Source: an uncultured Flavobacteriales bacterium | Lineage (GTDB): Bacteria > Bacteroidota > Bacteroidia > Flavobacteriales_E > Vicingaceae | DNA: 64,000 nucleotides | Assembly: GCA_963973975.1 (NCBI GenBank) | Contig: CAXBCF010000017.1 | Coordinates: 559-64,558, forward strand | Direction: 5' to 3' | Part shown: one piece after another, positions 14,775-57,654 of the stretch | How positions within the stretch are numbered: the first letter of the stretch is position 1 | Layout of the letters: each line of letters starts with the position of its first letter | The notes under the pieces: generated by a model | The model's input: the letters and a program-made list of their open reading frames with translations, nothing else | Told to the model about the DNA's origin: nothing | Database searches by the model: none | Program-made: the position numbers and the translations under genes

Positions 14775-14786
14775 CCCTAACCGTAT

Positions 14787-14866
14787 CAAATTACCTCCAT
14801 AGCCCTCGGTTTAAACCGAGGGCTATGGAGATACGAGGCGAAAACCAAACCGTTTCAACGGTTTGG
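14787..14866 (+). repeat. Double-hairpin REP-like repeat, copy A
   Basis: Perfect 36-nt palindrome CTCCATAGCCCTCGGTTTAAACCGAGGGCTATGGAG (14795-14830), then ATACGAGGCGAAAA, then hairpin CCAAACCG-TTTCAA-CGGTTTGG. It is near-identical to 22716-22801. Confidence 0.9.
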
Positions 14867-14877
14867 TATTATTTTCC

Positions 14878-14910: not shown

Positions 14911-15020
14911 GCTATTATTTAATACGATGTCAACTTAACTTTATTCCACTTTTTCTTAACAGCTTCTAATTTACCACTAGAAAAAAGTAAATTAACCGTT
15001 TGAAATTAAGCAACAGAGGA

Positions 15021-18000
15021 ATGCAGATAAATAGATTGAACCCAAGAAAGGCATTAAACAAAGCCTTTTTGAAAGTAAAGCCGAACAGAACAGAAATTGA
15101 AGGGTTCAAAACGAATCTTATTCAATTGCTCGATAGAATCAATGACGCTGAATCTGAAGAATTTCATAAAAACTTGGTCAGTGATTTTCTCAAAAAAACC
15201 TATTACGAACCCAAGCACTTCATCAACACCAAAGGAAGAAACGATTTAGTAATTCACAATGGAGATAAAGCAAACAGCTCAGTTGGGGTAATTATAGAAG
15301 CAAAAAAATCGACTAACAAAAGTGAAATGGTGAAATCATTTGCTGAGAGCGATACGCCACAGCAAATAATTTCTAAGCTGAATACAAAGGCTTTTCAGGA
15401 ATTGGTGCTGTACTATTTGAGAGAACGAATAACGCACAAAAATCTTGAAGTAAAGCACCTGGTGATTACCAACATCAATGAATGGTTTGTTTTTGATGCG
15501 AGGTTATTCGATAGACTTTTTGCACAAAATAAAAGTTTGGTACAACAATTTAATGATTTTGAAGCCGGACGATTGGCAGATAATAAAACTGACTTTTTCT
15601 ACAAGCAAATTGCCGAACCATTTATTGCAGCGATTAATACCGAAATAGAATTTACTTATTTCAATCTTCAGGATTATCAGAAACCATTGAGAAATGACGA
15701 TAAAACGGATGACAATAAACTCATTGCACTTTTCAAATTACTTTCTCCTGAGCATTTACTGAAATTGCCATTTACTAATGACAGCAATAGCCTTGATAAA
15801 CGATTTTACAGCGAATTGTTGCACATAATTGGTTTAACGGAAACCAAAGAAGGAAGCAAAAAATTAATCAATCGCAACAAGGCTGGTGAAAGAAATTCGG
15901 GAAGCTTTTTAGAAGATGCAATCATTCAATTAGACAGTTTAGATAAAATTAGCCGCTTAGAAAAACCAAGTCAATTTGGCGATACGCAAGAAGAGCGATT
16001 GTTTAATGTGGCTTTAGAACTTTCCATTACTTGGATCAACAGAATTTTGTTTTTGAAATTGTTGGAGGCTCAATTAATTACCTACCACAAAGGCGATCTA
16101 TCGTATGCCTTTTTGAGTTTTGATAAAATCAAAAACTACGATGACTTGAATAGCTTGTTTTTTCAGGTTTTAGCAAAACAATACGATGAAAGAAATGAAG
16201 ATGTAAAACAAGTTTTTGAAAAAGTTCCTTACCTGAATTCATCCCTCTTTGAACCAACAGATATTGAGCATGCAACCTTGTTTATCAGTAACCTGAGAGA
16301 TGATAAAACTATTCCCATTATTTCATCAACAGTTCTAAAAAATGAGCAAGGGAAAAAGCGAACTGGAAGTTTATCTACGTTGGAATATTTGTTTGAATTT
16401 TTAAATTCCTATGATTTTAGCAGTGAAGGTTCTGAAGAAATTCAAGAAGACAATAAAACGCTGATCAATGCTTCGGTGCTCGGTTTGATTTTCGAGAAAA
16501 TTAATGGCTATAAAGATGGTTCGTTTTTTACACCTGGCTTTATTACCATGTACATGTGTCGTGAAACCATTCGAAAAGCAGTGATGCAAAAGTTTAAAGA
16601 AGCAGGTTTTCAACTTGCTGAAAGTGCTGAGCTTTCCGAAAATTTGAACGAAATCTACAACCAAATAAGCGACATTAAAAAAGCCAATGAAATTGTCAAC
16701 AGCATTAAAATTTGTGACCCTGCTGTTGGCTCGGGACACTTTTTGGTTTCGGCGCTCAATGAAATGATTGCAGTAAAAAATGATTTAAATATTTTGCAAG
16801 ACCGCGATGGAAAAAGGCTAAGAGACTATCATGTGGAAGTGGTGAACGACGAGTTGATTGTGACAGACGAAGAAGGAGAATTGTTTGACTACAAACCCAA
16901 CAACAAGGAAAGCCAACGCATACAAGAAACACTCTTTCACGAAAAGCAAACCATTATTGAAAACTGCTTGTTTGGAGTGGACATCAACCCCAATTCGGTG
17001 AAAATTTGCCGCTTGCGTTTGTGGATTGAGCTGTTGAAAAATGCCTATTACAAGAATGAAAAAGAGCTGGAGACTTTACCAAACATTGACATTAACATAA
17101 AATGCGGAAACTCTTTAGTAAGCCGTTTTGCCATTGATGCTGACATTAAAAAAGCCCTGAAAAAAAGTAAGTGGACCATTGATAGTTACCGCATTGCGGT
17201 GGCAACTTACCGAAATGCGCAAAACAAGGAGCAGAAAAGAGCAATGGAAAAACTGATTGCCGACATTAAATCGGATTTTAGAAGTGAAATTTCCATGAAT
17301 GACCCCAAGGCAAAGCGCTTGCGAAAATTGTCTGGTGATTTATTTCAGATGACTCAGCAAACACAGCTTTTTGAAATGAGCAAAAAAGAAAAAACCGCTT
17401 GGAACAAAACAGTAGCAAAACTAAGTGAAGACACTAAAAAGCTAGAAACCGAAATTGAGGTAATAAAAGCTAACAAGATTTTTGAAAATGCTTTTGAATG
17501 GCGTTTTGAATTTCCGGAAGTGCTGAATGATGACGGCGACTTTATGGGCTTTGATGTGGTGATTGGGAATCCACCTTATATAAGACAAGAAGAGTTTTCG
17601 GAACTAAAACCATATTTAAAAATCCATTTTGAAATCTATCATTCTTTAGCGGATTTACTTACTTATTTTGTAGAACTAAGTCATAATATTCTGAAGCAAA
17701 ACGGAGTATTTCAATTCATTATTTCAAGTAAATTTACGAGAGCTGGATATGGTAATGTTATGCGTAAGTTTTTATCTAAAAAAACAGAAATAACACACTT
17801 TATTGACTTTGGTGGCAAACCAGTTTTCGATGAAGCAACAGTAGATGCTGCGATTATTGGTTTCGTAAAACAACAGCCAACAAATGAAGGTACATTTGTT
17901 TTTAAAGAAGTTTTAAAAGAAGATAATGTCTCTTTAAATTTTGATAATTATATTAAAACTAATGCAAACCAATTTCCAATAAAAGCTCTAACAGAAGATG

Positions 18001-18833
18001 TTTGGAGTTTTGATAATCCCAAATGGCTTACGATTATTGATAAAATTAATAAAAATGGTATTCCTTTAAGTGAATGGAACATAACAATTAATTTTGGAAT
18101 TAAAACTGGCTACAATGCGGCATTCATAATTGATGAAGCAAAGAAAAATGAACTAATTGAAGCAGACTCGAAATCATTAGAAATTATAAAACCTTTACTA
18201 AGAGGTAGAGATATTCAAAAGTACGTTGCTGATAATGTAGTAAATTGGGTGATAGGAACATTTCCTAGTAAAAAATTAGATATTGAAGAATACGTAAGCA
18301 TTAAAAATTACCTAATAACTTTTGGAAAAACAATTCATCAAACTGGTGAAAAAGGTTCAAGAAAGAAAACATCTCATAAATGGTTCGAAACGCAAGACAA
18401 TATTGCATTTTGGCAAGATTTCGAAAAGCCAAAATTAGTATGGAAAAGAATTGGATCTTTACTTCGCTTTTGTTATGATGAGAGTGGTGCATACTGTCTA
18501 GACAGTACTTGTATAGCAACGGGTTCAAAAGTTAAATTTTTATCTGCTGTGCTTAATTCTAAAATGTGCAATAAAGAACTTTTTAGACTTTCGCCAAAAA
18601 CAGGGACAGGAGATTTGATAATCAGTGTACAAGCATTAAACCCATTAAGAGTTCCAATGCCAACGGAAAAGCAAGAAAATGAAATTTGTTCTATACTCGA
18701 TAAAATTATTGAAATCAAAAAACTAGACCCCACAGCCGACACCACGGCACTTGAAAAAGAAATCGACCAATTAGTTTATGCTTTGTATGATTTGTCGGAG
18801 GAGGAGATAAAGATTGTGGAAAATTCTAAATGA
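15021..18833 (+). CDS. Type IIG restriction-modification enzyme (fused PD-ExK endonuclease, gamma-class N6-adenine methyltransferase and TaqI-like specificity domain)
   Basis: N-terminal D82...E100-A-K102 (NDLVIHNG...VGVIIEAKK, numbering from the 15000 ORF). FFTPGFITMYM (motif X-like), ICDPAVGSGHFL (SAM motif I, 16716), NIKCGNSLV, and FDVVIGNPPY (motif IV, 17568). C-terminal FGIKTGYNAAFII and LLRGRDIQKY are typical of TaqI-like TRDs. I prefer ATG 15021 over the TTG at 15000. Confidence 0.85.
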   Translation: MQINRLNPRKALNKAFLKVKPNRTEIEGFKTNLIQLLDRINDAESEEFHKNLVSDFLKKTYYEPKHFINTKGRNDLVIHNGDKANSSVGVIIEAKKSTNKSEMVKSFAESDTPQQIISKLNTKAFQELVLYYLRERITHKNLEVKHLVITNINEWFVFDARLFDRLFAQNKSLVQQFNDFEAGRLADNKTDFFYKQIAEPFIAAINTEIEFTYFNLQDYQKPLRNDDKTDDNKLIALFKLLSPEHLLKLPFTNDSNSLDKRFYSELLHIIGLTETKEGSKKLINRNKAGERNSGSFLEDAIIQLDSLDKISRLEKPSQFGDTQEERLFNVALELSITWINRILFLKLLEAQLITYHKGDLSYAFLSFDKIKNYDDLNSLFFQVLAKQYDERNEDVKQVFEKVPYLNSSLFEPTDIEHATLFISNLRDDKTIPIISSTVLKNEQGKKRTGSLSTLEYLFEFLNSYDFSSEGSEEIQEDNKTLINASVLGLIFEKINGYKDGSFFTPGFITMYMCRETIRKAVMQKFKEAGFQLAESAELSENLNEIYNQISDIKKANEIVNSIKICDPAVGSGHFLVSALNEMIAVKNDLNILQDRDGKRLRDYHVEVVNDELIVTDEEGELFDYKPNNKESQRIQETLFHEKQTIIENCLFGVDINPNSVKICRLRLWIELLKNAYYKNEKELETLPNIDINIKCGNSLVSRFAIDADIKKALKKSKWTIDSYRIAVATYRNAQNKEQKRAMEKLIADIKSDFRSEISMNDPKAKRLRKLSGDLFQMTQQTQLFEMSKKEKTAWNKTVAKLSEDTKKLETEIEVIKANKIFENAFEWRFEFPEVLNDDGDFMGFDVVIGNPPYIRQEEFSELKPYLKIHFEIYHSLADLLTYFVELSHNILKQNGVFQFIISSKFTRAGYGNVMRKFLSKKTEITHFIDFGGKPVFDEATVDAAIIGFVKQQPTNEGTFVFKEVLKEDNVSLNFDNYIKTNANQFPIKALTEDVWSFDNPKWLTIIDKINKNGIPLSEWNITINFGIKTGYNAAFIIDEAKKNELIEADSKSLEIIKPLLRGRDIQKYVADNVVNWVIGTFPSKKLDIEEYVSIKNYLITFGKTIHQTGEKGSRKKTSHKWFETQDNIAFWQDFEKPKLVWKRIGSLLRFCYDESGAYCLDSTCIATGSKVKFLSAVLNSKMCNKELFRLSPKTGTGDLIISVQALNPLRVPMPTEKQENEICSILDKIIEIKKLDPTADTTALEKEIDQLVYALYDLSEEEIKIVENSK

Positions 18834-18908: not shown

Positions 18909-21900
18909 ATGGCTAGTCTTCAACAAATTCAGCAAGCTTTAATTAATATGAATGAGACACTTTTCGAAGAAATGTGTGGTATTTACTTATCTTACGAATT
19001 TCCCTTACATAGGTCTTTTAATCCCCAAAATCATAAAACAAAACAGAAAACAAAAAAGGGAACTCCAGATATTAGTTATAAGCTTCCCAATGAAGGTTAT
19101 TTATTTGCTCAAATAACAACTCAGGAAAATATTGGAAAAAGCCTAACAACAAAGTTGAAGAATGATATTAAAGAATGCTTCAATATTGAAAAAACTAAAA
19201 TTGAGATAGAGAAGATTAAGGAAATTGCTTTATGTTATAATGAACAAATAAAGCCTAGTGACGAAGAATTAATTAATGATTTTGCAAAAAAAGAATTTAA
19301 TATTGTTCCACATCATTTTGGGCTTAAGCGAATCGCAAAAGACATTCTCTTTAAATATCACTTCATTGGAAGAGAATACCTGAAACTAGAATTTGGTACT
19401 GGTCAGATAGTTTCTATCAAGCAGTTTATTAAAACTTATGAAAGCGGTGGTCAGAGTTTAGCTACTCCACTTAACAATCATTATCTTGAAAGGAATCAAG
19501 ATTTGCCAAACTTGATTGATTCCATTATCAATAATAATATTGTCATTATTCATGGAGTAGCAGGATCTGGTAAGTCAAAACTTGCTATAGAAGGGATTGA
19601 AAAGTTCATTGAAGAAGAAACTGAATATATTGATCTGGCACTTTTTCCTAATGGAGGTGACTTAATCCACGATCTCATTAGTGAAATAGATAATTCAAGG
19701 AAATATATTCTCTTTGTAGATGATGTTAATAGAATCGAGCAGTTTACATCTGTTTTAGCTCACTATAGAAAAGCAACCGAGAATAGCCTTAAATTAGTTT
19801 TAACAGTCAGAGATTATGCTTATTCTGAAGCAAAGTCAAAACTGCTAGGTCTTAAATATAGTGATATTCATACAGAAAGGTTTAGTGATGATGAAATTAG
19901 AGACTTAGTCGAAGCTGCACCTTTTAATATCAAGAATTCAAAATTTCGATTTAAAATATCATCAATAGCTAAAGGCAATCCACGACTAGCAATCATGACT
20001 GCAAAACTTGCCTTGGAACATCAAAAAATTGAAGCTTTAGATAACATTTTTGATCTATTCGACCAATATTTCACTTCTTTTATTTACGATAATGATATTT
20101 TAAATGAACCAATTAATTTAAAAGTATTAGGATTGCTTTCGTTCTTTAACAATATAGAACATGAAAAAGGAAGAGAAATTGAAAAACTATCTTCTAATTT
20201 CAATCTGGATGAAAACAAGATAGTTGATTCAATAGAAAAATTACACACACACGATCTTATTTTACTAAATTTTGGTTATGCAAAAATTGGTGAGCAAAAC
20301 CTTGCTACTTACTTCTATTACAAAGTCTTTATTAAAGATAAATTGTTATCAATAAACAATTTGTTGAAATATTATTTTTCAACTCATTCGAATAGATTTT
20401 CGGACAGTATAAAATCAATCATTGAGCATTTTGGAGTAGAAAGTTTAGGTACTGTAAAACCATTAATTAAAAAGTATTGGCAGGAACAAGATTTAGAGCT
20501 TCGTCAACGACTCAGTTTTCTTGATATTTTCAGACAGATCATACCAAATGATGTTTTAGTTTTTATTGAAAGCTATATTGAAAGTTTACCTAGTACCACA
20601 AACCCAATATTTAAAATAGAGGAAAATAATGACTCCGATCATTCCTTTATATACGAACCTAATGCTCTTCGTTTATTGTTTAGTTTTTATAATGACTTAA
20701 ACTATCTAGATGACGCTTTCCAACTATCTTTTTCATTAATAAAAAAGAAACCAGATTACTTTAATAAGTTAATCCAAAATTTGAAAGAAAAATTTGGAAA
20801 GAGCTTCAACGATGAGAAGTCCAAATTTGAGAGACAACATAAGCTAATTGATTATTTAATTGGTATGTCTAAAAAAGAAGAGGGGGACTTGTATAAGATT
20901 TCATTGATTGCCGTTTCACAAAGTATTTTATCTACTTTTAAATTGGATACTGAAGGTTTTAAAAGCGAAGACGTCAATGAAGATTTAGTTGATTCTATTA
21001 AGAGGATTAGGGAGAAGCTAAAGAGATTTTTATATGAAAATGTTGAAAATTTTAGTGAACCGATATTAGAAGTTTTGTTAGACAATACAATTAACAATGT
21101 TGCCATATCAAGAGAAACACACGAATTTGATCTAACTGTGACAACATCTCTAATGGCAGGTTGTCTTAATAGTAGTGACTTTAGACACTGTTTGCTAGTA
21201 CAAGAGGAGTGTTGGCTAATGAATAAATTGGGCTCATCCTCAAATGAACTGGAAAGTATAAAAATTCAGTTTTCACATTCTGCTTATGAAACCTTTATTA
21301 ATTTAAATAGAGAGCGTTTAAGGGGGAAGGTGGATTTTGAATTTGAAAACTCGGATGAGTTTGATAAATTAAAAACAACAGATCAAAAACAGTTTTTTCA
21401 TTTTAGAAGCACTAAGGAAGTTGACAATTTTATTGAACATTTGAGACTAATATTAAATTGGGATTTTCTTTCAAAACATAGTTTATATCAATTAAGACAG
21501 TCTATTTATATCATCTTAGAGGAAAACAATAGACAGAACCGAAAAATTGGATTTCATTTACTTTGTAAGTTAATTACTTTTTTTAACCTGAGAAAAGAAA
21601 CAATTGTTGATGCTTCTTTTTTTAAAATAATTTCTGACGAAAATGAAGTTTTAGAAAAGCTTTGGGAATATATAGTTTCTAATAATTTACAACCAATATG
21701 GAAGTTATTTGTGCTAGATTCAATTCCTGCATATAGAATTGAAAAAGTACATTATGATCGATTGATCAATACTATTTCTATCCAAAAAAATGATTGGTAC
21801 TCACTCAAGAATTTTGAAAAGTACTCTAATGTTGATTCTCAGGTAATAGAGAAAATCGTGAAACAAATAACTGATTTAAACGAGAAAGGTGGTGACTATA

Positions 21901-22640
21901 AAATATGGTTAGATAGAGAATTTCATCAAAATTTGGGAGAAAATAATCAGCTTGAGCTTGCTAAAGAGTCCTATCTTCAACAATACTTTATGAATAAACA
22001 TTTTGATCATGGAGGTAAAGCCTTATTATCAATTTTAGAAAAGGATAAAAAATTTCTAAACGTGTTATTAAGGAGTATTGTTGAAAGACAAATAAAGCTG
22101 AAAGCTATTGAGCACAGAGAGTTAAGTATTGTTTGGGAATTAGAAGGGGCAGAAGAAGTTATTGATAACGCTATTTTATTGATGGTTGAAATGAATACTA
22201 ATTATACAATAGGTGAAGATTTTATCAATACATTTTTTTATGAATCACATCTTCGTTCAGTGCAAGTAAACACATATTTATTAAATTTAATAAAGAAATA
22301 TTACTATAGAGTGGATGTAGTTAATATTGCTTTTAATGTAATAAACTACTCTAAAAAAGACTTATTTGATAAAGCATTCGTAACTTATTTAAGTATTAAT
22401 CAGTCAAAAGATGACTTTGAACAAATAGATTGGTTTGAAAATCAAATAATATATCCGGGTGGTGCTAAGGTTAGTAAGATAAAGATTAGCAAATGGCAGT
22501 ATTTACTCAATTTAGTTGAAGGTCATGAAAAACGGTTAGATTTAATTGAAATTAAAAGATTTATCAATAGCCAAATTGGACACCAAGAAAATTTTGCAGT
22601 CATTGAAGAGAGTTGGAATTTTTTAAAAGAAACATGGTAG
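18909..22640 (+). CDS. STAND-type P-loop NTPase, 1243 aa, with unassigned N-terminal (~165 aa) and C-terminal (~870 aa) regions
   Basis: Walker A IIHGVAGSGKSK (19554), Walker B YILFVDDV (19704-19727), LVLTVRD (sensor-1-like Arg) and a GxP-type motif AKGNPRLAIMTAKLA (19974) follow the order seen in NB-ARC/NACHT-like STAND ATPases. It sits 75 nt downstream of the Type IIG gene on the same strand. Confidence 0.75.
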   Translation: MASLQQIQQALINMNETLFEEMCGIYLSYEFPLHRSFNPQNHKTKQKTKKGTPDISYKLPNEGYLFAQITTQENIGKSLTTKLKNDIKECFNIEKTKIEIEKIKEIALCYNEQIKPSDEELINDFAKKEFNIVPHHFGLKRIAKDILFKYHFIGREYLKLEFGTGQIVSIKQFIKTYESGGQSLATPLNNHYLERNQDLPNLIDSIINNNIVIIHGVAGSGKSKLAIEGIEKFIEEETEYIDLALFPNGGDLIHDLISEIDNSRKYILFVDDVNRIEQFTSVLAHYRKATENSLKLVLTVRDYAYSEAKSKLLGLKYSDIHTERFSDDEIRDLVEAAPFNIKNSKFRFKISSIAKGNPRLAIMTAKLALEHQKIEALDNIFDLFDQYFTSFIYDNDILNEPINLKVLGLLSFFNNIEHEKGREIEKLSSNFNLDENKIVDSIEKLHTHDLILLNFGYAKIGEQNLATYFYYKVFIKDKLLSINNLLKYYFSTHSNRFSDSIKSIIEHFGVESLGTVKPLIKKYWQEQDLELRQRLSFLDIFRQIIPNDVLVFIESYIESLPSTTNPIFKIEENNDSDHSFIYEPNALRLLFSFYNDLNYLDDAFQLSFSLIKKKPDYFNKLIQNLKEKFGKSFNDEKSKFERQHKLIDYLIGMSKKEEGDLYKISLIAVSQSILSTFKLDTEGFKSEDVNEDLVDSIKRIREKLKRFLYENVENFSEPILEVLLDNTINNVAISRETHEFDLTVTTSLMAGCLNSSDFRHCLLVQEECWLMNKLGSSSNELESIKIQFSHSAYETFINLNRERLRGKVDFEFENSDEFDKLKTTDQKQFFHFRSTKEVDNFIEHLRLILNWDFLSKHSLYQLRQSIYIILEENNRQNRKIGFHLLCKLITFFNLRKETIVDASFFKIISDENEVLEKLWEYIVSNNLQPIWKLFVLDSIPAYRIEKVHYDRLINTISIQKNDWYSLKNFEKYSNVDSQVIEKIVKQITDLNEKGGDYKIWLDREFHQNLGENNQLELAKESYLQQYFMNKHFDHGGKALLSILEKDKKFLNVLLRSIVERQIKLKAIEHRELSIVWELEGAEEVIDNAILLMVEMNTNYTIGEDFINTFFYESHLRSVQVNTYLLNLIKKYYYRVDVVNIAFNVINYSKKDLFDKAFVTYLSINQSKDDFEQIDWFENQIIYPGGAKVSKIKISKWQYLLNLVEGHEKRLDLIEIKRFINSQIGHQENFAVIEESWNFLKETW

Positions 22641-22715
22641 TCAAGTTAAATGAATGTATAACATATACATCAGTCTTAAATATTAAGCTAAATGGATAAT
22701 CCATTCTAAACATAA

Positions 22716-22801
22716 CAAATTATCTCCATATCTCCATAGCCCGGGGTTTAAACCCCGGGCTATGGAGATACGAGGCGAAAACCAAACCGTTTCAACGGTT
22801 T
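22716..22801 (+). repeat. Double-hairpin REP-like repeat, copy B
   Basis: CTCCATAGCCCGGGGTTTAAACCCCGGGCTATGGAG (22732-22767), then the identical ATACGAGGCGAAAACCAAACCGTTTCAACGGTTT. An 8-nt tandem duplication TCTCCATA TCTCCATA lies at the left edge (22723-22738). Confidence 0.9.
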
Positions 22802-22816
22802 ATAAAACGATCAATT

Positions 22817-23251
22817 ATGCCGCATTCATACATTAAAATATGGATACATGCCATTTGGGCAACAAAAGAGAGAAAACCCTTGATTAACTCAACCATTGAG
22901 AAAAAGGTGTATCAGTTTATTTCTGATCAATTGCGTGAGCAGGGTTGTCCTGTTAGAATTATCAACGGAATGCCCGACCACATTCATTGTTTGTTTTTAT
23001 TAAGCCGACAAAAATCCATAGCAGAAGTTATAAAGCAGATAAAAGGCAGCAGTTCACATTTTATCAATCATAATAATCTAATCCCTGAAAAATTTTCATG
23101 GCAAACAGGATATGCCGCATATTCAGTTTCTGAGTCTATTGTTGAGAGGGTATTTAATTATATCAAAAAGCAAAAGGAGCATCACCAAAAACAAACATTT
23201 CTTCAAGAATATGAGGAATACATAAAATTATATGGGTTGGATAAAAATTAA
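22817..23251 (+). CDS. IS200-like Y1 transposase / REP-associated tyrosine transposase (RAYT)
   Basis: 144 aa with HUH motif PDHIHCLF (H55-I-H57, nt 22979) and C-terminal catalytic-Tyr helix VFNYIKKQKEHH (Y115, nt 23159). The gene is immediately flanked by palindromic repeats. Confidence 0.85.
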   Translation: MPHSYIKIWIHAIWATKERKPLINSTIEKKVYQFISDQLREQGCPVRIINGMPDHIHCLFLLSRQKSIAEVIKQIKGSSSHFINHNNLIPEKFSWQTGYAAYSVSESIVERVFNYIKKQKEHHQKQTFLQEYEEYIKLYGLDKN

Positions 23252-45746: not shown

Positions 45747-48707
45747 TCATTTTATTCTAGTCCTACTCCTCATTATCAAAGGGAATCGAATTTCTACCTT
45801 TGTTCCCTTATCTAAATCTTCGATGTGGATCAAAATCGGATAAATTAAGCTTGCATTAATCAGATTAATTCTTTTTTCAATTGCAGCTGTGGAAAATGAT
45901 TGGTGATTTTTTTTTCTTCGTTGGTTTATTTTGTTGGATGCCTCCATGCCAATACCATTGTCAATAATTTGGCATAAAACGCTTTTTTCTTCTTTAAGAA
46001 ATCTAATGATTAATTTTTTTTCTTCGTTTTGGCTATGAAGCAATCCATGTTTTATTGCATTTTCCACATAAGGTTGAAGCATCATTGGTGGAATGGAGAA
46101 ATTGAGCAATTCTTCTTCATCTTCAATAATAATTTCTGTAGTTACTTTATCGTTAAACCTTAACTTTTCAAGATCTAAATATATTTTTAATAGATCAACC
46201 TCTTCCTGAATTGAAATTCTATCTTTTGAGCTATAATTTAAAACAGAACGAAGCAATTCTGCAAACTTTCCTAAGTATAAATTACTCTCATTTACTTGCT
46301 TTTGAATGATAAGGTTCTGAATGGAATTTAATGCATTAAAAATAAAATGAGGGTTCATTTGTGCCTTCAGTCCATCTATTTCTGATTGAATAAGTTTTGT
46401 TTGAAGCTCCTTTTCTTTTTTAATTCTCTTTAGCCGTTTACTGAAGATAAAAAAAAGTAATGCAAATAGGATTAATGAAACGAATAGAAAGAATAACCAA
46501 CTTTGCCAAACAGGGGATTTAATTTCAAATGAAAAGCTTTTAATTTTACTTCTATTTCCATTGAATCCTTCTACATAGACCTCAAAAGTATAATTTCCAG
46601 GTGATAAATTGGGAAACCTTATGATGGTGTTTTTATCTAATCGAATCCACTCTTGATTTGCACCAAGAAGACGATAATAGTACAAACGATTTTCAAAACT
46701 TCTTAAATCTAAAGCGGATAGTTGAATAGTAAGTCTATTTTGATTGTAGTCGAAATGATTTTTCTCAGTCGGATCGACTACTTTATCATCAATTTTTACT
46801 TCTTTGATAAAGACTTCATTATTTATAAATTCAGCATTGTTTTCCATGGCTAAAACTGTCAATCCCTTATTTGAAATTGCATACATCTTACCATTTGAAA
46901 CAATAGCCTTAGAAATGTTATCGCTTGGTAACCCATTGTTTTTTGTCCATCGCATGTATTTTTTTGTCGTCCTATCAAAAGTGAATACTCCAATGTTGGT
47001 GCTTGCAATAATTAAGGGCTCATGATATGAAATGGAGTTAATATAAATCGTAGGAAAGTCTTCGGAAAGCACAACATATTCAATAAGAACACTACCAGAA
47101 TAAAAATAAATTGCATTTGCCGTGGAAATCCACAATTCTCCTTGTTTAGTAATCTGTAAGTCGTTCGCTAAAATAGCTTTGTCCTCGAATTTAATTTGAG
47201 TTTTAGTGTTCTTTTTGTATTTCCAAACCCCACGACCATCAATGACCCAAACCGAAGAATCAAAAGGATTGATTAAAGTCTTTACACACCTGTCGTTGCT
47301 AATTCTAGTATAGCTTAAATTCGATACACTTTCAAAGGAGAGGCTATCTGAAATGTTTTTATTAAAATAAGCTTCCAGGCTCAGTTCATCACCATTTAAA
47401 AATCCAGTGAAGCATCCATAGGTATTTCCATAAATTAAGAAGTTACTCATTTTATCTAAGTCCTTATTTCCGAGATTTGGGAAGGAATCAAGCAAGCGAA
47501 TTTGCGGAACAATTTGGAACTCATAAGCATAATTGAAGGTTCCAATGAGCAATGAATTTGAAGCTATACTATACTTCATTACTGAAATTTCTTCACTTGG
47601 TTTTTCGATGCATTTTTGAATTTTAGCTTCACTATCGAAGCACCATATCTTTTCTTTATCTTCAAGAAAGAAAACAGTATTCTCAACCTCAACCAATCCG
47701 GTTAAATTATTACTTTCCAACAAAGAGCCATCGGAAGTAAATACTTTAGACTGGAGGTTTGGAATGAAGTAAAGTCCATTTTCAAGTGTAGAAACCCATA
47801 AAGAATTTTTATTCGCAACAACTCCTGTAATCTTCTCTTCTTTAAATAAATAGCTTTCTAAATGATAATGCTCGTTATAGATTTCCAAACCATACTCTCC
47901 AAAAAATAGAATTCCGTTTTGCTTGCTCTCACTTCTATATCTTCCAATTTTATCTTTAAATATCTCTTCAATTTCGATAAATTGATTTATCTTTTTATCA
48001 AACTTTAGAAGCTTTTCATCTTGACCTAAAGCAACATAATGTAAAGATTGAGGAGTTTTTATATAGTGCCCTTTATAAATTAAATTACCTTCATAAATAA
48101 CTTCTACTAATTTGCTTGATAAATTATAAGTAATAAGTCTTTGAATTTCTCCATCAAGAATCCTTAGATGGATTTTATCATCCCAAAATAATAGTGGCTC
48201 AATGTATTGACCCTTTGATAATTTAAGCCCTAATTGGATATAATCAAACTTTTTATTTATTAAGTTAAATGTTGTAATTATGGATGATTTAGAGGGGAGG
48301 TAGAGTATATTTTCATGAACCAAAAAATTGGTATACTGCTCTGTACTATCATTCCAATCAATGACAAGTCTAATGGAATCAGACTCAATTTTATAAATCC
48401 GATTTTTTAAACCAGTACCATAAACATTCCCAGTTTCATCTTTTTGAAAATAAAGAATTTCGTCCTTAATGGTGTTTTCCCAAGGGATAGCCCTGTTCTC
48501 TAGACCATCAAATTCGTATACACCTGACTCTGTGCATAAATAAATAAACTCTGAATTGCTTTTCGTAATATGATATATGTGACTAAAGGGGTAATCGATT
48601 CTTGTATTAAGATCAAAATAGAAGCTACTTTGTGCTTTTGTATAGGAGAATAAAAAGTTAAGTAGAAGAAAGAAAAGAAAAAATATATTTATAACTTGCT
48701 TTTTCAC
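45747..48707 (-). CDS. Sensor histidine kinase, LytS/His_kinase type, with large periplasmic propeller / Y_Y_Y-like sensor
   Basis: 986 aa with an N-terminal leader, ~720-aa extracytoplasmic region, TM WLFFLFVSLILFALLFFIF, then QMNPHFIFNALNSIQNLI (LytS-type H-box) and an HATPase region (IIDNGIGM). Confidence 0.85.
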   Translation of the reverse strand: MKKQVINIFFLFFLLLNFLFSYTKAQSSFYFDLNTRIDYPFSHIYHITKSNSEFIYLCTESGVYEFDGLENRAIPWENTIKDEILYFQKDETGNVYGTGLKNRIYKIESDSIRLVIDWNDSTEQYTNFLVHENILYLPSKSSIITTFNLINKKFDYIQLGLKLSKGQYIEPLLFWDDKIHLRILDGEIQRLITYNLSSKLVEVIYEGNLIYKGHYIKTPQSLHYVALGQDEKLLKFDKKINQFIEIEEIFKDKIGRYRSESKQNGILFFGEYGLEIYNEHYHLESYLFKEEKITGVVANKNSLWVSTLENGLYFIPNLQSKVFTSDGSLLESNNLTGLVEVENTVFFLEDKEKIWCFDSEAKIQKCIEKPSEEISVMKYSIASNSLLIGTFNYAYEFQIVPQIRLLDSFPNLGNKDLDKMSNFLIYGNTYGCFTGFLNGDELSLEAYFNKNISDSLSFESVSNLSYTRISNDRCVKTLINPFDSSVWVIDGRGVWKYKKNTKTQIKFEDKAILANDLQITKQGELWISTANAIYFYSGSVLIEYVVLSEDFPTIYINSISYHEPLIIASTNIGVFTFDRTTKKYMRWTKNNGLPSDNISKAIVSNGKMYAISNKGLTVLAMENNAEFINNEVFIKEVKIDDKVVDPTEKNHFDYNQNRLTIQLSALDLRSFENRLYYYRLLGANQEWIRLDKNTIIRFPNLSPGNYTFEVYVEGFNGNRSKIKSFSFEIKSPVWQSWLFFLFVSLILFALLFFIFSKRLKRIKKEKELQTKLIQSEIDGLKAQMNPHFIFNALNSIQNLIIQKQVNESNLYLGKFAELLRSVLNYSSKDRISIQEEVDLLKIYLDLEKLRFNDKVTTEIIIEDEEELLNFSIPPMMLQPYVENAIKHGLLHSQNEEKKLIIRFLKEEKSVLCQIIDNGIGMEASNKINQRRKKNHQSFSTAAIEKRINLINASLIYPILIHIEDLDKGTKVEIRFPLIMRSRTRIK

Positions 48708-49447
48708 AATCTTTTAATCAATATTTCAACCTCAGAGAGATATTCCTTACTATATTTTACTTCAATTTTATTTTGCAATTGTATCGTTCTATCTGTTTTA
48801 TTAAATGAAAGAATTTTAGATGTATTGATTAGATAGGAACGATGAAATCTTGCAAATTGACCAGTTTCTTTTAAAAGTTCTTCAATTTTATTCAGGCTCT
48901 TACTTATCAGTAATTTGTCATTTTTATAGAAAATGTAAGCATATCCTCGATCTGCTTTAACTGCAATAATGTCTGTTACGTTTAGGGCGTAATATCCTCC
49001 TGAAAATGGAATTGATATTTTTTCAAGTTTTTTATTATGTAGGTAAGATTCTAAAATCTTCAATCTACTATCGCTTTCCTTGGCCATTTTCTTCGAAAAA
49101 ACCTTCTCAATTGCTTCTTTTAAACGATCTACATTAATTGGTTTTAATAAATAATCAATCGCTGATATTTCGAAGGCTCTTACAGCATGATTTGAATATG
49201 CAGTGACGAAAATGATCTCAAAATTTATCTGTTCAAAGAAATCCAATAACTCAAAACCAGAATAATTTGGCATTTCAATGTCTAAAAAGACTAGGTCAGG
49301 TTGATATTTATGAATCAATTTAACTCCTTCTTTGATATCCTCAGCCTCTCCCATCAATTGCACTCTGCCCTCACAATGCTCCGATAGGTTAAACTTAAGA
49401 ACATTTCTTGCGCCCTCTTCATCTTCAATGATAATTGCTTTTAACAT
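48704..49447 (-). CDS. LytTR-family response regulator
   Basis: Receiver domain (IIIEDEE, PDLVFLDIEMPNYSGFE, IIFVTAY) plus C-terminal LytTR domain (FARFHRSYLINTSKI). There is a 4-nt overlap with the kinase gene. Confidence 0.92.
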   Translation of the reverse strand: MLKAIIIEDEEGARNVLKFNLSEHCEGRVQLMGEAEDIKEGVKLIHKYQPDLVFLDIEMPNYSGFELLDFFEQINFEIIFVTAYSNHAVRAFEISAIDYLLKPINVDRLKEAIEKVFSKKMAKESDSRLKILESYLHNKKLEKISIPFSGGYYALNVTDIIAVKADRGYAYIFYKNDKLLISKSLNKIEELLKETGQFARFHRSYLINTSKILSFNKTDRTIQLQNKIEVKYSKEYLSEVEILIKRL

Positions 49448-49580
49448 GTTATTCTAATCTAAAAAAAAGACGTTTCGAAGTCGATCAAAACGCCCTTTCA
49501 AATCTAATTGTTTAACTACCATCAAGAAATTAATTTTGATAAGATGAATGATAGCAAAGTTAAAAATAAGAAGACCGCAG

Positions 49581-49609
49581 ACGAAGCCATAATTTATTTT
49601 CCGTAAAGG
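49581..49609. promoter_or_regulatory. Direct-repeat element upstream of the LytTR operon (shared with 52785-52815)
   Basis: ACGAAGCCATAATTTATTTTCCGTAAAGG: half-sites CGAAGC and CCGTAAAG about 20 nt apart, 134-162 nt upstream of the response-regulator start. Confidence 0.45.
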
Positions 49610-49713
49610 TTATTTTGCTTTTTTTAGGATTATTCTTTTCGTAATTACTTTTAACTTCTTCCAAAGTTTATTTTCTAGATGTTTCCTTTAGTCTTGTAAA
49701 GTATGTTTTAAAG

Positions 49714-49748
49714 AAAAAAGCGCTTACAAAAGAAAGCGCTTTTTTTTT
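49714..49748 (-). terminator. Intrinsic terminator after the LamG-repeat gene
   Basis: AAAAAGCGCTT-ACAAAAGA-AAGCGCTTTTT with A/T runs on both sides, 13 nt beyond the stop at 49761. Confidence 0.75.
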
Positions 49749-49760
49749 GGGGTAGATTTT

Positions 49761-52733
49761 TTAGTATTTAATGAGTTTCTTAGTTAAGATTTTGTTATCA
49801 AATACAATTTTCAGGAGATATACTCCTTGAGGATAAGTAGAAAGGTCTACTTGATTTTTACTGCTGATTACGTGTCTGATTTGTTGACCATTTAGTCCAA
49901 AAACTTCAATCGATTTTGCGCCATCAACTCCTGTCAATTGAAACAAGCCGTTAGAAGGATTGGGAAAAACATAGGTGTTATTGTTAGTGAGTAGCTCATC
50001 AACAAGTCCCACAGGGATAGGAGGCGTATAACCGCCCGCAGCGAATAAACTATCAACTTCAATATTGGAGATTTGTCTGCTGTAAATATTTACGTCATCA
50101 ATAATCCCGTCAAAAAATTGATTTCCATTGCCAATGTTTGGCCAATTCTGCGAAAAGGTAACCCCAATTTGGTTTTTACTTAGGTTGAAATTGAAAACTG
50201 CACCTTGCCCCATTCCAACCATTCTGCCATCAATGAAAACTTGCTGGTAGTTCGTGGAAGCTGCTAACACTAGATGATGCCATGAGCCGTCTGCCACATT
50301 TACTAACTGTTGATTAATGTTTGCATTTCCAGTACTCTTTAAAAAGGTAGCATGTAAATTGCCTGTGGTAGTGCCATCTACATACATTAGCGGCACAAAA
50401 AAAGTATTTGAAGAGGGTAGTGCATTCTGCTGGTGCCCAATTATGCCTCTCCCTTTTTGTGTTGTCTTAATCCATACTGAAATACTTCTTACGTCGCTTC
50501 TAAGTAGATTGTCTGGCATTGTTACTTGACTGTTTGTCCCATTAAAATAATAGGCAGAGGCAGGGTTTCCAAAACGATCTGTGGTATCTGTAACATTTAT
50601 TGCTGTACCATTGTTATTGCTTCCTGAACTATCTGCAGCATTGCCACTAAATAAATATCTTGCAGTATTTCCAACTTTAGTGGTACCTGTATCTACTTCG
50701 TTGTAAAGTTCAAGTGCTTCTGCAGCAGTAATTTTTCTGTCGTAAATTTTTACATCGTCAATGCTTCCAGTGAAGAAATTTTTCAAAGTATTATAGTTAG
50801 GCCAACCGGTTGCGTAGGTAGCTCCAATCTGATTTTTAGGCATGATTGATGAAGAAGTAATTCCTGCACCTGTACCTGAAAGAACACCATCAACATATAT
50901 TTCCTGACTGTTTAAGTCACCGCTTATTACCACATGATGCCAGAGCTGGGCAGCAACAGGAACATTGGAAGAAAGTATGTTGCTTGTGTTTGCCTTGTAA
51001 AAAGTGCCGTGCAAGTTGCCGGCAGAATTAATATATAAAAATGGATTCCAAGCAGTACTTGATTGTCCTACAGGATTGTTTTGAATGCCAATAATCCCTC
51101 CTGCATCCCCTGTTTTAAACCACAGCGATATAGAAATACTATCGCGTTCTAACAAACCATCTGGCAAACGAACTTCGCTATTGCTTCCATTAAAACTTAA
51201 TGCAGCATTGACATTTCCAAAGCGATCAAAAGTAGGGCTAGCGTTTAAACCTACGTTTATTCCATCATTTGCATTAGAAGTAGCGTCTAAAACAGAACCA
51301 TTATTAAACGGAAAATCAGCAATTAAGCCTACTTTAATAGGGAGAGGCGGTGGCAGTGGTACAACTAAGGTATCTGCGGCTAAAATAGCAGCTTCTATAT
51401 TCGAAAGTGGTCGATCAAAAATTTGAACATCATCGATAATTCCTTCAAAATACATATTGCCCAAAGTGTGTCCTGAAAAACCTTGTGCATAAGTTACTCC
51501 AATTTGATTGCTAACTACGTTGGTACTAACATTTAATACAATACCTGTGTCCGACCCTACAAAAACGCCGTCAATGTAAATGTTTTGATACTCCCTAGTA
51601 CCGGAAAGCACCACATGATGCCATGTAGAGTCAACAACATTTATTGTTGTTTTATTCACATTATTGCTATTTGATTTAGTAAATGATCCGTATAAATTGT
51701 TTGTTGAATCATTGGCAATGTATAGGTTGGGAGTATATTGAGAACTTATGCTTGTAATAATATTAGATTGTTGCCCAATGATTCCTCCTGCATTCGAACT
51801 TGCTTTAAACCATAAAGCAATACTTAAGGTGTCTTTTAAAAGTAAACTGTCTGGCAGTCTCACTTGGCTGCTGCTTCCGTTAAAATAATACGCCGATTGG
51901 GAGTTCCCAAATCGATCTGTAGTATCTACCACTCCTAATGGAGTGCCATTCAAGCCGTTTCCTGAACTGTCTAACGCATTACCACTAAATTTGTAGCTAG
52001 CAATGCTGTTAACGTATGTAGTTCCTGTATTTGCCTCCTCATAAAGTGACGTAACTTCAGCCGAAGTTAATACTCTATTGTAAATACGCACATCGTCTAT
52101 AGCTCCTTTAAAATATTTTAACCGCTGCGTTCCATAAAGGGGCCAGTTGGTGGCTGAAGTCACTCCAATTTGATTGAAAGCTAAACCTGGAACCAAACCA
52201 CCACCAGTTGCCGTTCCAACAGCAACACCATCGATATAACAACTTATTCCTCCACCGTTACCTGCAATCACTGCGTGATGCCAATTATTGTCTGTAACGT
52301 CACTCAATACTGTATTTACATTGCTGTTATTGTTTTTAAATGTAGTCGCGTGTAAATTATTATTGTCATTTACGTACATATTAGCCACCCAACCTGTTTG
52401 GTTGCTAAGTGTATATCCTCTGTTTTGCTGACCAATAATTCCACCAGGTGAGTTTGTTTTAAACCAAAGTGAGATCGTAATTGAACCTCTGTTTAACATA
52501 TTATTTGGAAGTACTACAACGCTGCTGCTACCATCAAAGTAAAGTGCATCACCTGCATTTCCAAATCGGTCTAATGTAGGTGTAACATTTGTACCTGTAC
52601 CGTTAGCATTAAAGGCTGAAAAATCATTGGTAGAGCCACCGGTAAACGGATAATGACCAACAAGTCCGGTTGTTGGAATTTGTGCAATTACTTGAGCACT
52701 GAATAAAATTAGAACGAATAAGCTGTTTTTCAT
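49761..52733 (-). CDS. Secreted protein with four LamG/ConA-like lectin modules and T9SS C-terminal sorting domain
   Basis: A four-fold ~225-aa repeat, each with DRFGN[AS]xxA[LY]xF[ND]GS[NS]SxVxLP...[IL]S[IL][AS][LV]W[FI]K[TA]...WHH[VAL]V...[IV]DDV[RQKN]I[YF][DNS]R. C-terminal YVFPNPSNGLFQL...GVYLLKI. Confidence 0.85.
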   Translation of the reverse strand: MKNSLFVLILFSAQVIAQIPTTGLVGHYPFTGGSTNDFSAFNANGTGTNVTPTLDRFGNAGDALYFDGSSSVVVLPNNMLNRGSITISLWFKTNSPGGIIGQQNRGYTLSNQTGWVANMYVNDNNNLHATTFKNNNSNVNTVLSDVTDNNWHHAVIAGNGGGISCYIDGVAVGTATGGGLVPGLAFNQIGVTSATNWPLYGTQRLKYFKGAIDDVRIYNRVLTSAEVTSLYEEANTGTTYVNSIASYKFSGNALDSSGNGLNGTPLGVVDTTDRFGNSQSAYYFNGSSSQVRLPDSLLLKDTLSIALWFKASSNAGGIIGQQSNIITSISSQYTPNLYIANDSTNNLYGSFTKSNSNNVNKTTINVVDSTWHHVVLSGTREYQNIYIDGVFVGSDTGIVLNVSTNVVSNQIGVTYAQGFSGHTLGNMYFEGIIDDVQIFDRPLSNIEAAILAADTLVVPLPPPLPIKVGLIADFPFNNGSVLDATSNANDGINVGLNASPTFDRFGNVNAALSFNGSNSEVRLPDGLLERDSISISLWFKTGDAGGIIGIQNNPVGQSSTAWNPFLYINSAGNLHGTFYKANTSNILSSNVPVAAQLWHHVVISGDLNSQEIYVDGVLSGTGAGITSSSIMPKNQIGATYATGWPNYNTLKNFFTGSIDDVKIYDRKITAAEALELYNEVDTGTTKVGNTARYLFSGNAADSSGSNNNGTAINVTDTTDRFGNPASAYYFNGTNSQVTMPDNLLRSDVRSISVWIKTTQKGRGIIGHQQNALPSSNTFFVPLMYVDGTTTGNLHATFLKSTGNANINQQLVNVADGSWHHLVLAASTNYQQVFIDGRMVGMGQGAVFNFNLSKNQIGVTFSQNWPNIGNGNQFFDGIIDDVNIYSRQISNIEVDSLFAAGGYTPPIPVGLVDELLTNNNTYVFPNPSNGLFQLTGVDGAKSIEVFGLNGQQIRHVISSKNQVDLSTYPQGVYLLKIVFDNKILTKKLIKY

Positions 52734-56299: not shown

Positions 56300-56459
56300 G
56301 GTCGAAATTACAAATATTCGCAGATTGATGAAGTAAAAAATTTAATTGCTTTGTGATAGAATGAGTGCTTAAAAGAAGTCAATGAAAATTATCAACATTT
56401 TAATGGTTTTTAATTTTCGCTTTTTATATTTACACCTAAACTCTTTAAAACTATAAATT

Positions 56460-57017
56460 ATGAGAAAAGTATTTTTTTTAGCCGCAGGCTTATCGTTAAT
56501 GATTACTCAAACAGGTTGCTTTGGATCATTTGAGCTTGTAAAAAAAGTTTATGAAGTAAATGATGGGATATCCAATAATAAATTTATTAAATCATTAATT
56601 TTTTGGATCGGAGGTTTTGTATATGGAATTGCAGGATTTTTAGATGCAGTAATTTTTAATTTAATTGAATTTTGGACTGGATCTAATCCAATAGCGATGG
56701 AAGAAGGACAATATGAAGAACAATTATTGACTTTTAAAGGAGAAACTTATAAAATTGTGGCCACTAAAAATCAAATGACTTTTTTAAAATTGCAAGACGG
56801 TTCTTCTATTGATCTTGGGTCACTTAAATTCGATGCATCTAATTCCAGTTGGAATTTCGAAAAAGATAACCAGATAGTTGAATTAATCAGAGTTGAAGAA
56901 GATATTTTGAAATATTCTACAGAAGATGGAGTGAAAATAGCTAATGTTAGTGAATTAGATTGCATTGTAATAAATGAAAACTGGATTTCTACCAGTTTTG
57001 CCTTTGCTTCTAAGTAA
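56460..57017 (+). CDS. DUF3332-like lipoprotein
   Basis: Lipobox ITQTGC, followed by FGSFELVKKVYEVNDGISNNKFIKSLIFWIGGFVYGIAGFLDAVIFNLIEFWTG, which I recognise as the DUF3332 pattern. Confidence 0.7.
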   Translation: MRKVFFLAAGLSLMITQTGCFGSFELVKKVYEVNDGISNNKFIKSLIFWIGGFVYGIAGFLDAVIFNLIEFWTGSNPIAMEEGQYEEQLLTFKGETYKIVATKNQMTFLKLQDGSSIDLGSLKFDASNSSWNFEKDNQIVELIRVEEDILKYSTEDGVKIANVSELDCIVINENWISTSFAFASK

Positions 57018-57114
57018 TTTGTAAATCTTAAATTTAATGGAGTTCAGATACCATTTTTAAAAACGAGGTGAAACCGAAAAACCTTAAGAGTAGGTAACTT
57101 AAAACAAAAATAGA

Positions 57115-57408
57115 ATGAAAAAAACTTTTTTAAAATTATTATTTATTAGTTTCTTAACATTTTCAATGTCTGCTTGTTATACTAATACTTTTTCTATTGG
57201 TAAAGGAGCTCAAACTGGTGTTAAATATCAAAAAAAGAATCATTATTTAATTTATGGACTAGTACCACTAAGCAATGCTAATCCTGTAGAAATGGCTAAG
57301 GGTGCTGAAGATTATGATGTTACAATAGTACATACTTTTGTAGATGGTTTAATTAATGCTATTACTTTTGGAATTTATACTCCTACAACAACAATAGTAA
57401 GTAAATAA
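57115..57408 (+). CDS. Bor/Iss-family small lipoprotein
   Basis: 97 aa with lipobox SMSAC. The C-terminal HTFVDGLINAITFGIYTPTT parallels QTFVNGLLGFITLGIYTP of phage lambda Bor. Confidence 0.8.
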   Translation: MKKTFLKLLFISFLTFSMSACYTNTFSIGKGAQTGVKYQKKNHYLIYGLVPLSNANPVEMAKGAEDYDVTIVHTFVDGLINAITFGIYTPTTTIVSK

Positions 57409-57431
57409 TAAGAATATTTATTTTTTGCTAT

Positions 57432-57459: not shown

Positions 57460-57470
57460 ATATTATCTAT

Positions 57471-57653: not shown

Positions 57654-57654
57654 T

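Follow-up and report, generated by a model that had tools for sequence, protein, structure and literature searches.

An nSTAND3-clade NTPase with a predicted nuclease-fold N-terminus and HEAT-like solenoid represents a mobile family of putative Avs-like receptors

The STAND gene and its ATPase core

The DNA analyzed here, called the window throughout, is a stretch of 64,000 nucleotides from an uncultured Flavobacteriales bacterium of the Vicingaceae (assembly GCA_963973975.1, contig CAXBCF010000017.1, positions 559 to 64,558 of the forward strand). It contains a gene for an NTPase of the STAND (signal transduction ATPases with numerous domains) class, which is the subject of this study. A sequence-only reading of the window had reported its open reading frame (ORF) of 1243 amino acids (aa) together with four motifs, GVAGSGKS, ILFVDD, LVLTVRD and AKGNPRLAIMTAKLA, and all of them were found at the residues given there. 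The gene and the features of its ATPase region are listed below in window coordinates, with conservation counts taken from an alignment of 216 full-length family members, which also underlies the counts in later sections.

18909..22640, plus strand: full ORF, 1243 aa and stop, with ATG start; nSTAND3-clade STAND NTPase
19404..19508, plus strand: conserved linker, aa 166-200, with invariant residues Q166, T186-P187 and R195
19509..19886, plus strand: P-loop nucleotide-binding domain (NBD), aa 201-326; five parallel strands (aa 211-322) in the AlphaFold2 (AF2) model; contains the nSTAND3 match
19554..19577, plus strand: Walker A, GVAGSGKS, aa 216-223; G216, G219, G221 and K222 invariant (n=216)
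19707..19724, plus strand: Walker B, ILFVDD, aa 267-272; D271 and D272 invariant, followed by conserved N274 (213/216) and R275 (204/216)
19794..19814, plus strand: sensor-1 strand, LVLTVRD, aa 296-302, inside the NB-ARC match; R301 invariant, T299 in 212/216
19887..20147, plus strand: helical domain HD1, aa 327-413, including the GxP helix; helices at AF2 model residues 138-224
19968..20012, plus strand: GxP motif helix, AKGNPRLAIMTAKLA, aa 354-368; G356 in 213/216, N357 in 214/216, R359 invariant
20148..20294, plus strand: winged-helix domain (WHD), aa 414-462; strand-helix-helix-hairpin at AF2 model residues 226-270

Pfam analysis of the window protein gave a match to nSTAND3 (PF20720) at 29.6 bits against a gathering cut-off of 27.2 (E 6.6e-7, aa 201-313), and one to NB-ARC (PF00931) at 26.7 bits against a cut-off of 23.5 (E 4.1e-6, aa 261-366, profile positions 97-202). 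The NB-ARC alignment takes in Walker B and the TxR sensor strand and ends with the GxP helix. Within it, the LVLTVRD strand resembles the RNBS-B 'TTR' motif of NB-ARC proteins, and the sequence GNPRLAI (aa 356-362) in the GxP helix follows Walker B in the order seen in STAND proteins. The proline of the GxP motif, P358, is retained in 163 of the 216 members and replaced by alanine in 43. No segment of the family is more conserved than the linker, whose mean pairwise identity is 50%. Taken as a set, the motifs of the window protein lie far beyond what chance would produce. Among the other sequence searches with this protein, PADLOC returned mad8 alone, weakly and in the P-loop region (E 1.2e-3), the NCBIfam scan returned nothing meaningful, and a search of PDB sequences returned P-loop similarity to UvrA only. 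With the family profile, the sole matches among PDB sequences were the P-loops of UvrA, RarA (MgsA), HslU and RuvB.

Predicted structure of the ATPase and the C-terminal half

An AF2 model of aa 190-1243, built on a 48-sequence alignment (mean predicted local distance difference test, pLDDT, 83.6), runs from a P-loop domain through a helical domain and a winged helix into a long alpha-solenoid. When this model was compared with the PDB using Foldseek, the top match was the antiviral STAND (Avs) protein Avs4 bound to a phage portal (8dgf, E 2e-8), followed by NLRP14 (1.3e-6), archaeal PAB2304 (2.8e-5) and NLRP9, with SSO1545, MalT and the Avs5 filament 9nc9 (5e-4) lower in the ranking. Matches to ORC/Cdc6 (4e-5 to 6e-5), RuvB (1e-4) and clamp loaders are interspersed from rank 6, at weaker E-values than the top three; closeness to STAND rather than to other AAA+ structures was judged from this ranking. 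Since the nSTAND3 and NB-ARC models both score above their cut-offs, the model has the STAND domain order, and the best structural matches agree, the ATPase of the window protein is a STAND NTPase and not a generic AAA+, ABC or RecA protein. The sequence-only reading had argued as much from the order and spacing of the motifs, and the Pfam analysis it proposed bears this out, placing the ATPase in the nSTAND3 clade and not in a non-STAND clade such as that of ORC/Cdc6.

20295..22637, plus strand: C-terminal alpha-solenoid, aa 463-1243, presumed sensor; about 45 helices, mostly at pLDDT 80-95 (AF2)

The C-terminal 874 residues are rich in L, I, E, K, N, S and F and are predicted to be all-helical. 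At Pfam cut-offs, no TPR, WD40, LRR or other repeat family was found in the window protein. Foldseek matches for the solenoid include CAND1, CRM1, importins, transportin, Pds5, FANCI and the HEAT regions of mTOR, and in the predicted structure the C-terminal ~780 residues form a HEAT/ARM-like alpha-solenoid. This explains why Pfam detects no repeat, and why the same region had appeared helical by eye and yet could not be assigned to TPR, WD40 or LRR. Mean pairwise identity within the family is 28-35% in the solenoid, compared with 39-50% in the linker, the NBD, the winged helix and the N-terminal and helical domains, and the greater variability of the solenoid would be expected of a sensor. 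Protein lengths cluster at 1241-1243 aa, with few gaps in the full-length family alignment.

A predicted restriction-endonuclease fold at the N-terminus

Upstream of the linker lies a domain of 165 residues, which carries the following features.

18909..19403, plus strand: N-terminal domain, aa 1-165, predicted PD-(D/E)xK (restriction-endonuclease) fold in the AF2 model, presumed effector
19068..19070, plus strand: codon of D54, the 'PD' aspartate in 'GTPD' just before strand 2; D in 216/216
19110..19112, plus strand: codon of Q68 in strand 3, the E68 position of the family; E in 208/216, Q in 8/216, nothing else
19152..19154, plus strand: codon of K82, candidate catalytic lysine in helix 79-90; K in 215/216

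An AF2 model of aa 1-185 (pLDDT 82.5) contains a helix (16-30), three strands (35-37, 55-58 and 64-70), a second helix (79-90) and a further strand (103-110). This is the alpha-beta-beta-beta-alpha-beta topology of the PD-(D/E)xK nuclease core, with D54 preceding strand 2 and position 68 within strand 3. D86, on the same helix as K82, is present in 215/216 members, and D24, on the first helix, in 195/216. Strand 3 lacks the usual lysine, having an ExT/S motif with T/S at the 'xK' position, and the lysine is found instead on the next helix. The catalytic lysine is likewise borne on a helix in the Hantaan virus endonuclease (D97/E110/K124) and in influenza PA (K134; PMC4909276). The spacing of D54/E68/K82 in the family (14 and 14 residues) resembles that of the Hantaan triad.

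Foldseek comparison of the N-terminal model with the PDB (best E 8e-3, template modeling (TM) score ~0.4) returned an African swine fever virus RNA-polymerase subunit, Hef/Mus81, EcoO109I, VRR-NUC, LmuA, and the endonucleases of the severe fever with thrombocytopenia syndrome (SFTS) virus L protein and of Ebinur Lake virus. FokI and Nt.BspD6I were also listed, the output not giving the aligned part of either. In BFVD (best E 7e-4, TM 0.50) the matches included several proteins named 'restriction endonuclease', a RecB-family nuclease, endodeoxyribonuclease I, Mrr and RPB5 homologues. Nuclease-fold proteins thus dominate both lists, although weakly. At permissive Pfam thresholds, L_protein_N, which covers the bunyavirus endonuclease region, matched 4 of 20 members weakly (best E 9e-4) and VRR_NUC matched one of the 20. 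A profile of the domain retrieved nothing relevant from PDB sequences, the only match being a spurious one to hemagglutinin. Against 1.84 billion representative proteins, the same profile gave 1228 matches at E <= 1e-3, the best 150 of which all belong to the same family or are fragments of it; as far as could be seen from these 150, the domain is family-specific. Together, the models suggest that aa 1-165 are likely to adopt a restriction-endonuclease fold, and nuclease activity of the domain is plausible but unproven.

The sequence-only reading had found no recognizable sensor or effector in the protein. At the level of sequence this stands, as Pfam, NCBIfam and PADLOC searches of the whole protein gave nothing for its N- or C-terminal regions, nor did PDB sequence searches recognize them. 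At the level of predicted structure it does not, since the models suggest a nuclease-like domain at aa 1-165 and a solenoid at aa 463-1243, the latter by the AlphaFold and Foldseek route proposed in that reading. The Avs layout it had invoked for comparison, with an N-terminal effector, a central NTPase and a C-terminal sensor, would accordingly be that of the window protein as modeled, the effector and sensor assignments of this tripartite architecture resting on predicted structures.

An E/Q change at the putative metal-binding position

The window copy departs from the family consensus at three positions of the N-terminal domain, namely Q68 (listed above) and two residues on the first helix.

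18966..18968, plus strand: codon of E20; Q20 in 204/216 members
18978..18980, plus strand: codon of G24; D24 in 195/216 members

All three residues are common to the window protein (P0001) and two relatives, P0002 and P0003, which are 70% and 69% identical to it. Q68 also occurs in five further, distant members, indicating that the E/Q change at position 68 has recurred. Within the clade of the window protein, identity in the N-terminal domain is 79-82%, against 67-68% for the rest of the protein; the domain being better kept than the remainder, it is still under constraint. Judged from these substitutions, the effector of the window copy may be attenuated, altered or inactive, or it may have a compensated active site.

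A large and patchily distributed family

The window protein belongs to a large, uncharacterised family that is horizontally mobile and patchy across phyla. An identical protein is encoded on TARA Oceans contigs, and the closest named relative comes from a Vicingaceae metagenome-assembled genome (MAG). More than 400 full-length relatives remain at 90% clustering, and the family comprises ~1000 clusters at 50% identity. The best 120 homologues, mostly 1239-1248 aa long and aligned at a query coverage of at least 95%, all contain PF20720; their source names are 'hypothetical protein', 'ATP-binding protein' and 'nSTAND3 domain-containing NTPase'. A scan of 185,579 species, represented by one genome each, identified 348 stretches encoding relatives. 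Most of these are in Bacteroidota, and the other hosts are Ignavibacteriae, Cloacimonadales, Planctomycetota, the proteobacteria Stenoxybacter and Limnohabitans, candidate-phyla bacteria, a Methanobrevibacter MAG, and the Bacillus-type Firmicutes Paenibacillus, Bacillus, Evansella and Neobacillus.

Full-length homologues of ~30% identity are also encoded on plasmids, namely NZ_CP092679.1 (L097), NZ_CP085502.1 (L098) and 12 others. Thirteen of these plasmids belong to Leptospira interrogans and L. noguchii, and one is a 472-kb Bacillus cereus megaplasmid, where the gene lies near a restriction endonuclease and AAA ATPases. One examined Leptospira plasmid copy lies near parA/parB. A search of 50,697 phage records found no homologue. 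When the identical STAND and SUI1 proteins were looked up, the results were near-identical TARA contigs only, which gave neither an empty site nor polymorphism usable for a selection test, because all contigs with the identical protein come from the same population. Separately, one of 39 members scanned with PADLOC gave a strong match to AbiEi (E 1.4e-50), so that an AbiE antitoxin-like domain may be fused to this member, or its ORF may be mis-joined.

Genes around the STAND gene in the window and at other loci

The window derives from a marine Bacteroidota genome and contains rpoB-rpoC-DUF3467, katG and genes for proteins sorted by the type IX secretion system (T9SS). The genes and repeats that surround the STAND gene are as follows.

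14778..14872, plus strand: left copy of a double-hairpin repeat of ~90 bp that flanks the block of restriction-modification (RM) and STAND genes
15000..18833, plus strand: type IIG RM enzyme; Pfam DUF7149 and DUF7814 (N-terminal), Eco57I, MmeI_Mtase and TaqI_C (specificity)
22711..22807, plus strand: right copy of the double-hairpin repeat (~90 bp), directly upstream of the IS200-like transposase gene
22817..23251, plus strand: IS200-like Y1 transposase gene, 144 aa, downstream of the STAND gene; Pfam Y1_Tnp, E 7.4e-26

The RM gene is on the strand of the STAND gene and ends 75 bp before it, and no terminator-like site was found between them. GC content is 0.289 in the STAND gene, 0.341 in the RM gene and 0.348 in the whole window. 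Further stretches of low GC (0.29-0.31), at window positions 46001-50000 and 56001-58000, contain ordinary genes: a Y_Y_Y/His_kinase sensor with a LytTR response regulator, and a DUF3332 protein with a T9SS-sorted glucose/sorbosone dehydrogenase. The first stem of the direct repeat differs between the two copies by compensatory changes (CCCTCGG/CCGAGGG and CCCGGGG/CCCCGGG), and the 18-nucleotide core of the second hairpin occurs in the window only at the two repeat sites. As an element of the REP/RAYT or IS200-end type, the repeat may serve to mark or mobilize the cassette. On TARA contig L093, the type IIG enzyme is split into ORFs of 1048 and 203 aa, probably by a frameshift or an assembly error, and the STAND ORF is 1262 aa long.

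Neighbors of the family were surveyed at 80 other loci by ORF calling and all-against-all BLAST, and are given as raw occurrence with no background correction. No partner gene is conserved across the 80 loci. Recurrent neighbors are type IIG and type III RM genes, AbiEii, reverse transcriptases, including defense-associated ones (DRT), AriA, mad2/3, a PLD-SNF2 helicase, another STAND gene, a DUF4365-TPR protein, integrases and resolvases. Three unrelated contexts are seen for the window protein and its two close relatives, one of them an integrase/RadC/metal-resistance element. Conserved housekeeping neighbors, which would have spoken for a housekeeping role, were therefore not what we found, the neighbors differing even among relatives that are 69-70% identical.

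A type IIG gene is located directly upstream on the same strand at three of the 80 loci: L027 (4878-8000, 0 bp from the STAND gene), L087 (4509-7997, 3 bp) and L056 (4636-7320, 680 bp). Their enzymes are of the MmeI/Eco57I type, a different subfamily from the DUF7149/DUF7814-type enzyme of the window. In the window, the type IIG neighbor is defense-island context and not a conserved partner. At seven of the 80 loci (L028, L032, L034, L037, L053, L071 and L081), the start of the STAND gene overlaps with, or directly adjoins, a gene of ~240 aa (-8 to +7 bp), and at five of the seven there is an additional ~140-aa gene, which gave no Pfam match. Five scanned neighbors gave a weak match to nucleoside 2-deoxyribosyltransferase, among them all four ~240-aa genes scanned individually (L028, L037, L053 and L071). 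The ~240-aa, ~140-aa and STAND genes may constitute a three-gene variant of the system in a sub-clade.

Proposed function and alternative explanations

Taking these analyses together, we consider the product of the gene to be a STAND NTPase of the nSTAND3 clade, stand-alone and horizontally mobile, that probably acts as a single-gene, Avs-like abortive-infection receptor. By analogy with Avs1-4, the C-terminal HEAT-like solenoid (aa 463-1243) would keep the protein closed in the resting state until it binds its ligand, which would come from the invader and would most likely be a conserved phage protein. ATP binding and oligomerization of the NBD-HD-WHD module (aa 201-462) would follow, bringing together the N-terminal restriction-endonuclease-fold domains (aa 1-165), so that nucleic acid is cut and the infection aborted. 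We infer the defense function, the trigger, the oligomerization and the nuclease activity in this scheme.

Several observations weigh against this proposal. A literature search using six member accessions found no experimental report on any member of the family, and the Avs models of PADLOC-DB v2 gave no match at E <= 0.01 in 39 members, so that the comparison with Avs1-5 profiles suggested in the sequence-only reading came out negative. Many neighbors at the 80 loci are ordinary genes. The near-constant length of the family, with few insertions or deletions, is unusual for repeat-type sensors, and no swap of the N-terminal domain occurs in the 150 best profile matches, whereas effector swapping is frequent in Avs families. 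The nuclease fold has statistically weak support (E 8e-3 in the PDB, 7e-4 in BFVD, TM ~0.4-0.5), and sequence profiles find no known nuclease. Finally, at two acidic positions that are near-invariant in the family, the window copy has Q68 and G24.

The last of these points leads to a tentative alternative, in which the protein is a STAND receptor whose N-terminal domain, in the window lineage, is no longer a nuclease, with E68Q and D24G removing metal binding. The domain would then only bind nucleic acid or interact with other molecules, and the protein would be a sensor, scaffold or decoy, or use another effector. Replacement of Glu by Gln is a classic change by which binding is kept and catalysis lost. 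Q68 and G24 are common to all three proteins of the clade, position 68 is solely E or Q, with Q having arisen in at least six lineages, and the N-terminal domain of the clade is more conserved than the rest of the protein and so still under constraint. On the other hand, a Gln is still able to act as a metal ligand or to hold a water molecule in position, and active-site residues that have migrated or been substituted are tolerated in PD-(D/E)xK enzymes, the helix-borne lysine being one example (PMC4909276). The window copy keeps D54, K82 and D86; the clade also has E20 for Q20, a helical turn away from position 24, which could compensate; and no alternative effector gene is conserved beside the three clade members. 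A more elaborate version, which we hold only as a speculation with a slim chance of being right, is that the family comprises Avs-type receptors with a rigid, fixed-length HEAT-like sensor for one deeply conserved invader feature across many phyla and an unannotated PD-(D/E)xK effector with a natural E/Q toggle. The Q68 lineages would then be attenuated or non-nucleolytic and would bind or signal, possibly together with adjacent systems such as the type IIG enzyme. The STAND protein and that enzyme could also form one two-gene system, in which the STAND protein, for example, senses infection and licenses or backs up restriction. The short same-strand spacing without a terminator-like site, the single double-hairpin repeat bracketing both genes, and the type IIG genes upstream at L027, L087 and L056 are consistent with such a system; we nevertheless regard it as very unlikely, given that the arrangement is seen at only 3 of the 80 other loci and with enzymes of different subfamilies, that P0002 and P0003, the closest relatives, have no RM neighbor, that most loci and the plasmid copies carry the STAND gene alone, and that RM genes are common in defense islands anyway.

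Two further explanations do away with defense altogether. The protein could be a non-defense STAND switch that serves mobile elements or plasmids, or a MalT/AfsR-like regulator, with the nuclease-fold domain acting as a DNA-binding module. Non-defense clades are interspersed with defense clades across the STAND tree (PMC13581612), MalT is among the Foldseek matches, plasmid partition genes or integrases are next to some of the copies, and the length and architecture of the family are unusually rigid. Pfam, however, detects no helix-turn-helix or other output domain in the window protein, no target operon or partner gene is conserved, the family is patchy across phyla with defense genes recurring among its neighbors, and the invariant D54 with K82 and D86 looks catalytic rather than merely DNA-binding, making this reading improbable. 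It is hardly credible that the protein is a generic AAA+ or ORC/Cdc6-type housekeeping paralogue in which the STAND-like motif order is a coincidence. Although ORC/Cdc6, RuvB, clamp-loader and MgsA structures are in the Foldseek list, and the sole PDB sequence matches of the family profile are P-loops of such ATPases and of UvrA, the AAA+ matches rank below Avs4 and NLRP14 and cover the ATPase core of ~300 residues only. Both STAND-related Pfam models score above curated cut-offs, the model contains the GxP helix, the winged helix and a large C-terminal solenoid, and 348 stretches among 185,579 species, in variable contexts, are incompatible with a housekeeping role.

If the single-gene Avs-like receptor is the correct interpretation, the family would be one more large group of bacterial NLR-like immune receptors, centered on Bacteroidota and spread wider, and the Avs repertoire would gain from it a HEAT-like sensor and a nuclease-fold effector that is as yet unannotated. 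Most functional work on Avs proteins so far has been on those from Enterobacteriaceae. As a single-gene candidate, the system is tractable for trigger screens, and the natural E/Q switch at the putative metal-binding glutamate offers a probe of whether effector catalysis is needed. The understanding of STAND immunity is unchanged by these results, which concern a new family of a well-known kind of antiviral sensor.

Comparison with known systems

As modeled, the N-terminal domain of the family shares with the cap-snatching endonucleases of hantaviruses, influenza virus (PA-N) and phenuiviruses the 'PD' aspartate at the start of strand 2, the strand-3 glutamate, and a lysine ~14 residues further on, in the helix that follows. 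The two differ in that similarity is weak (E ~1e-3 or worse), the family has no conserved metal-binding histidine, and the window copy has Q in place of the glutamate. The likeness to RNA-virus polymerase endonucleases is one of active-site arrangement, not of family relationship.

In eukaryotic NLRs and NB-ARC proteins (NLRP9, NLRP14, plant R proteins and Apaf-1), Walker A, an hhhhDD Walker B, TxR(D) and GxP follow each other in the same order as in the window protein. The latter differs in being a bacterial single-gene protein that lacks LRR and WD40 repeats as well as a death-fold or TIR effector, and the window copy has no MHD-type histidine, the corresponding place reading NFGYAKIGEQN.

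Two other assignments were considered and rejected. Avs9/SAMD9-like proteins carry AlbA_2, SIR2 or PNP effectors (PMC12680541), none of which is matched in the window protein. A Tn7-like reading as TnsA plus TnsC, with a nuclease joined to an AAA+ ATPase, is contradicted by the surroundings of the members, which show no conserved transposition genes or element ends.

Among prokaryotic STAND proteins, a 2026 survey by Lee et al. distinguished 589 clades, 198 of them defense-associated, and 684 sensor clusters, mostly alpha-helical (PMC13581612); the present family may already be catalogued there. In the PADLOC scan of 39 members, mad8 was matched in 37 (in the window protein at the P-loop region only) and MkoA in six, and the family is not a member of Avs1-5 as currently modeled. 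Avs5 (AVAST type 5, SIR2-nSTAND3-TPR/Sel1/PPR, 9nc9) is also built on nSTAND3 (10.1101/2025.07.08.663546), and the family resembles it in the PF20720 domain, the tripartite layout and the structural match to its filament (E 5e-4). It differs from Avs5 in the effector, which is SIR2 there, while the window protein has no SIR2 match (Pfam E <= 1) and no TPR, Sel1 or PPR match.

From the nuclease-bearing Avs1-4, the family is set apart by an N-terminal domain that Pfam does not detect, a HEAT/ARM-like sensor without TPR match, and an almost fixed length of ~1243 aa. It resembles them in combining, in one large polypeptide, an N-terminal restriction-endonuclease fold, a STAND NTPase with winged helix and an alpha-helical C-terminus, the two ends by prediction in the family, and Avs4 (8dgf) is its best structural match (E 2e-8). 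With Avs proteins in general, it shares a mobile, patchy distribution, and other defense genes occur among its neighbors.

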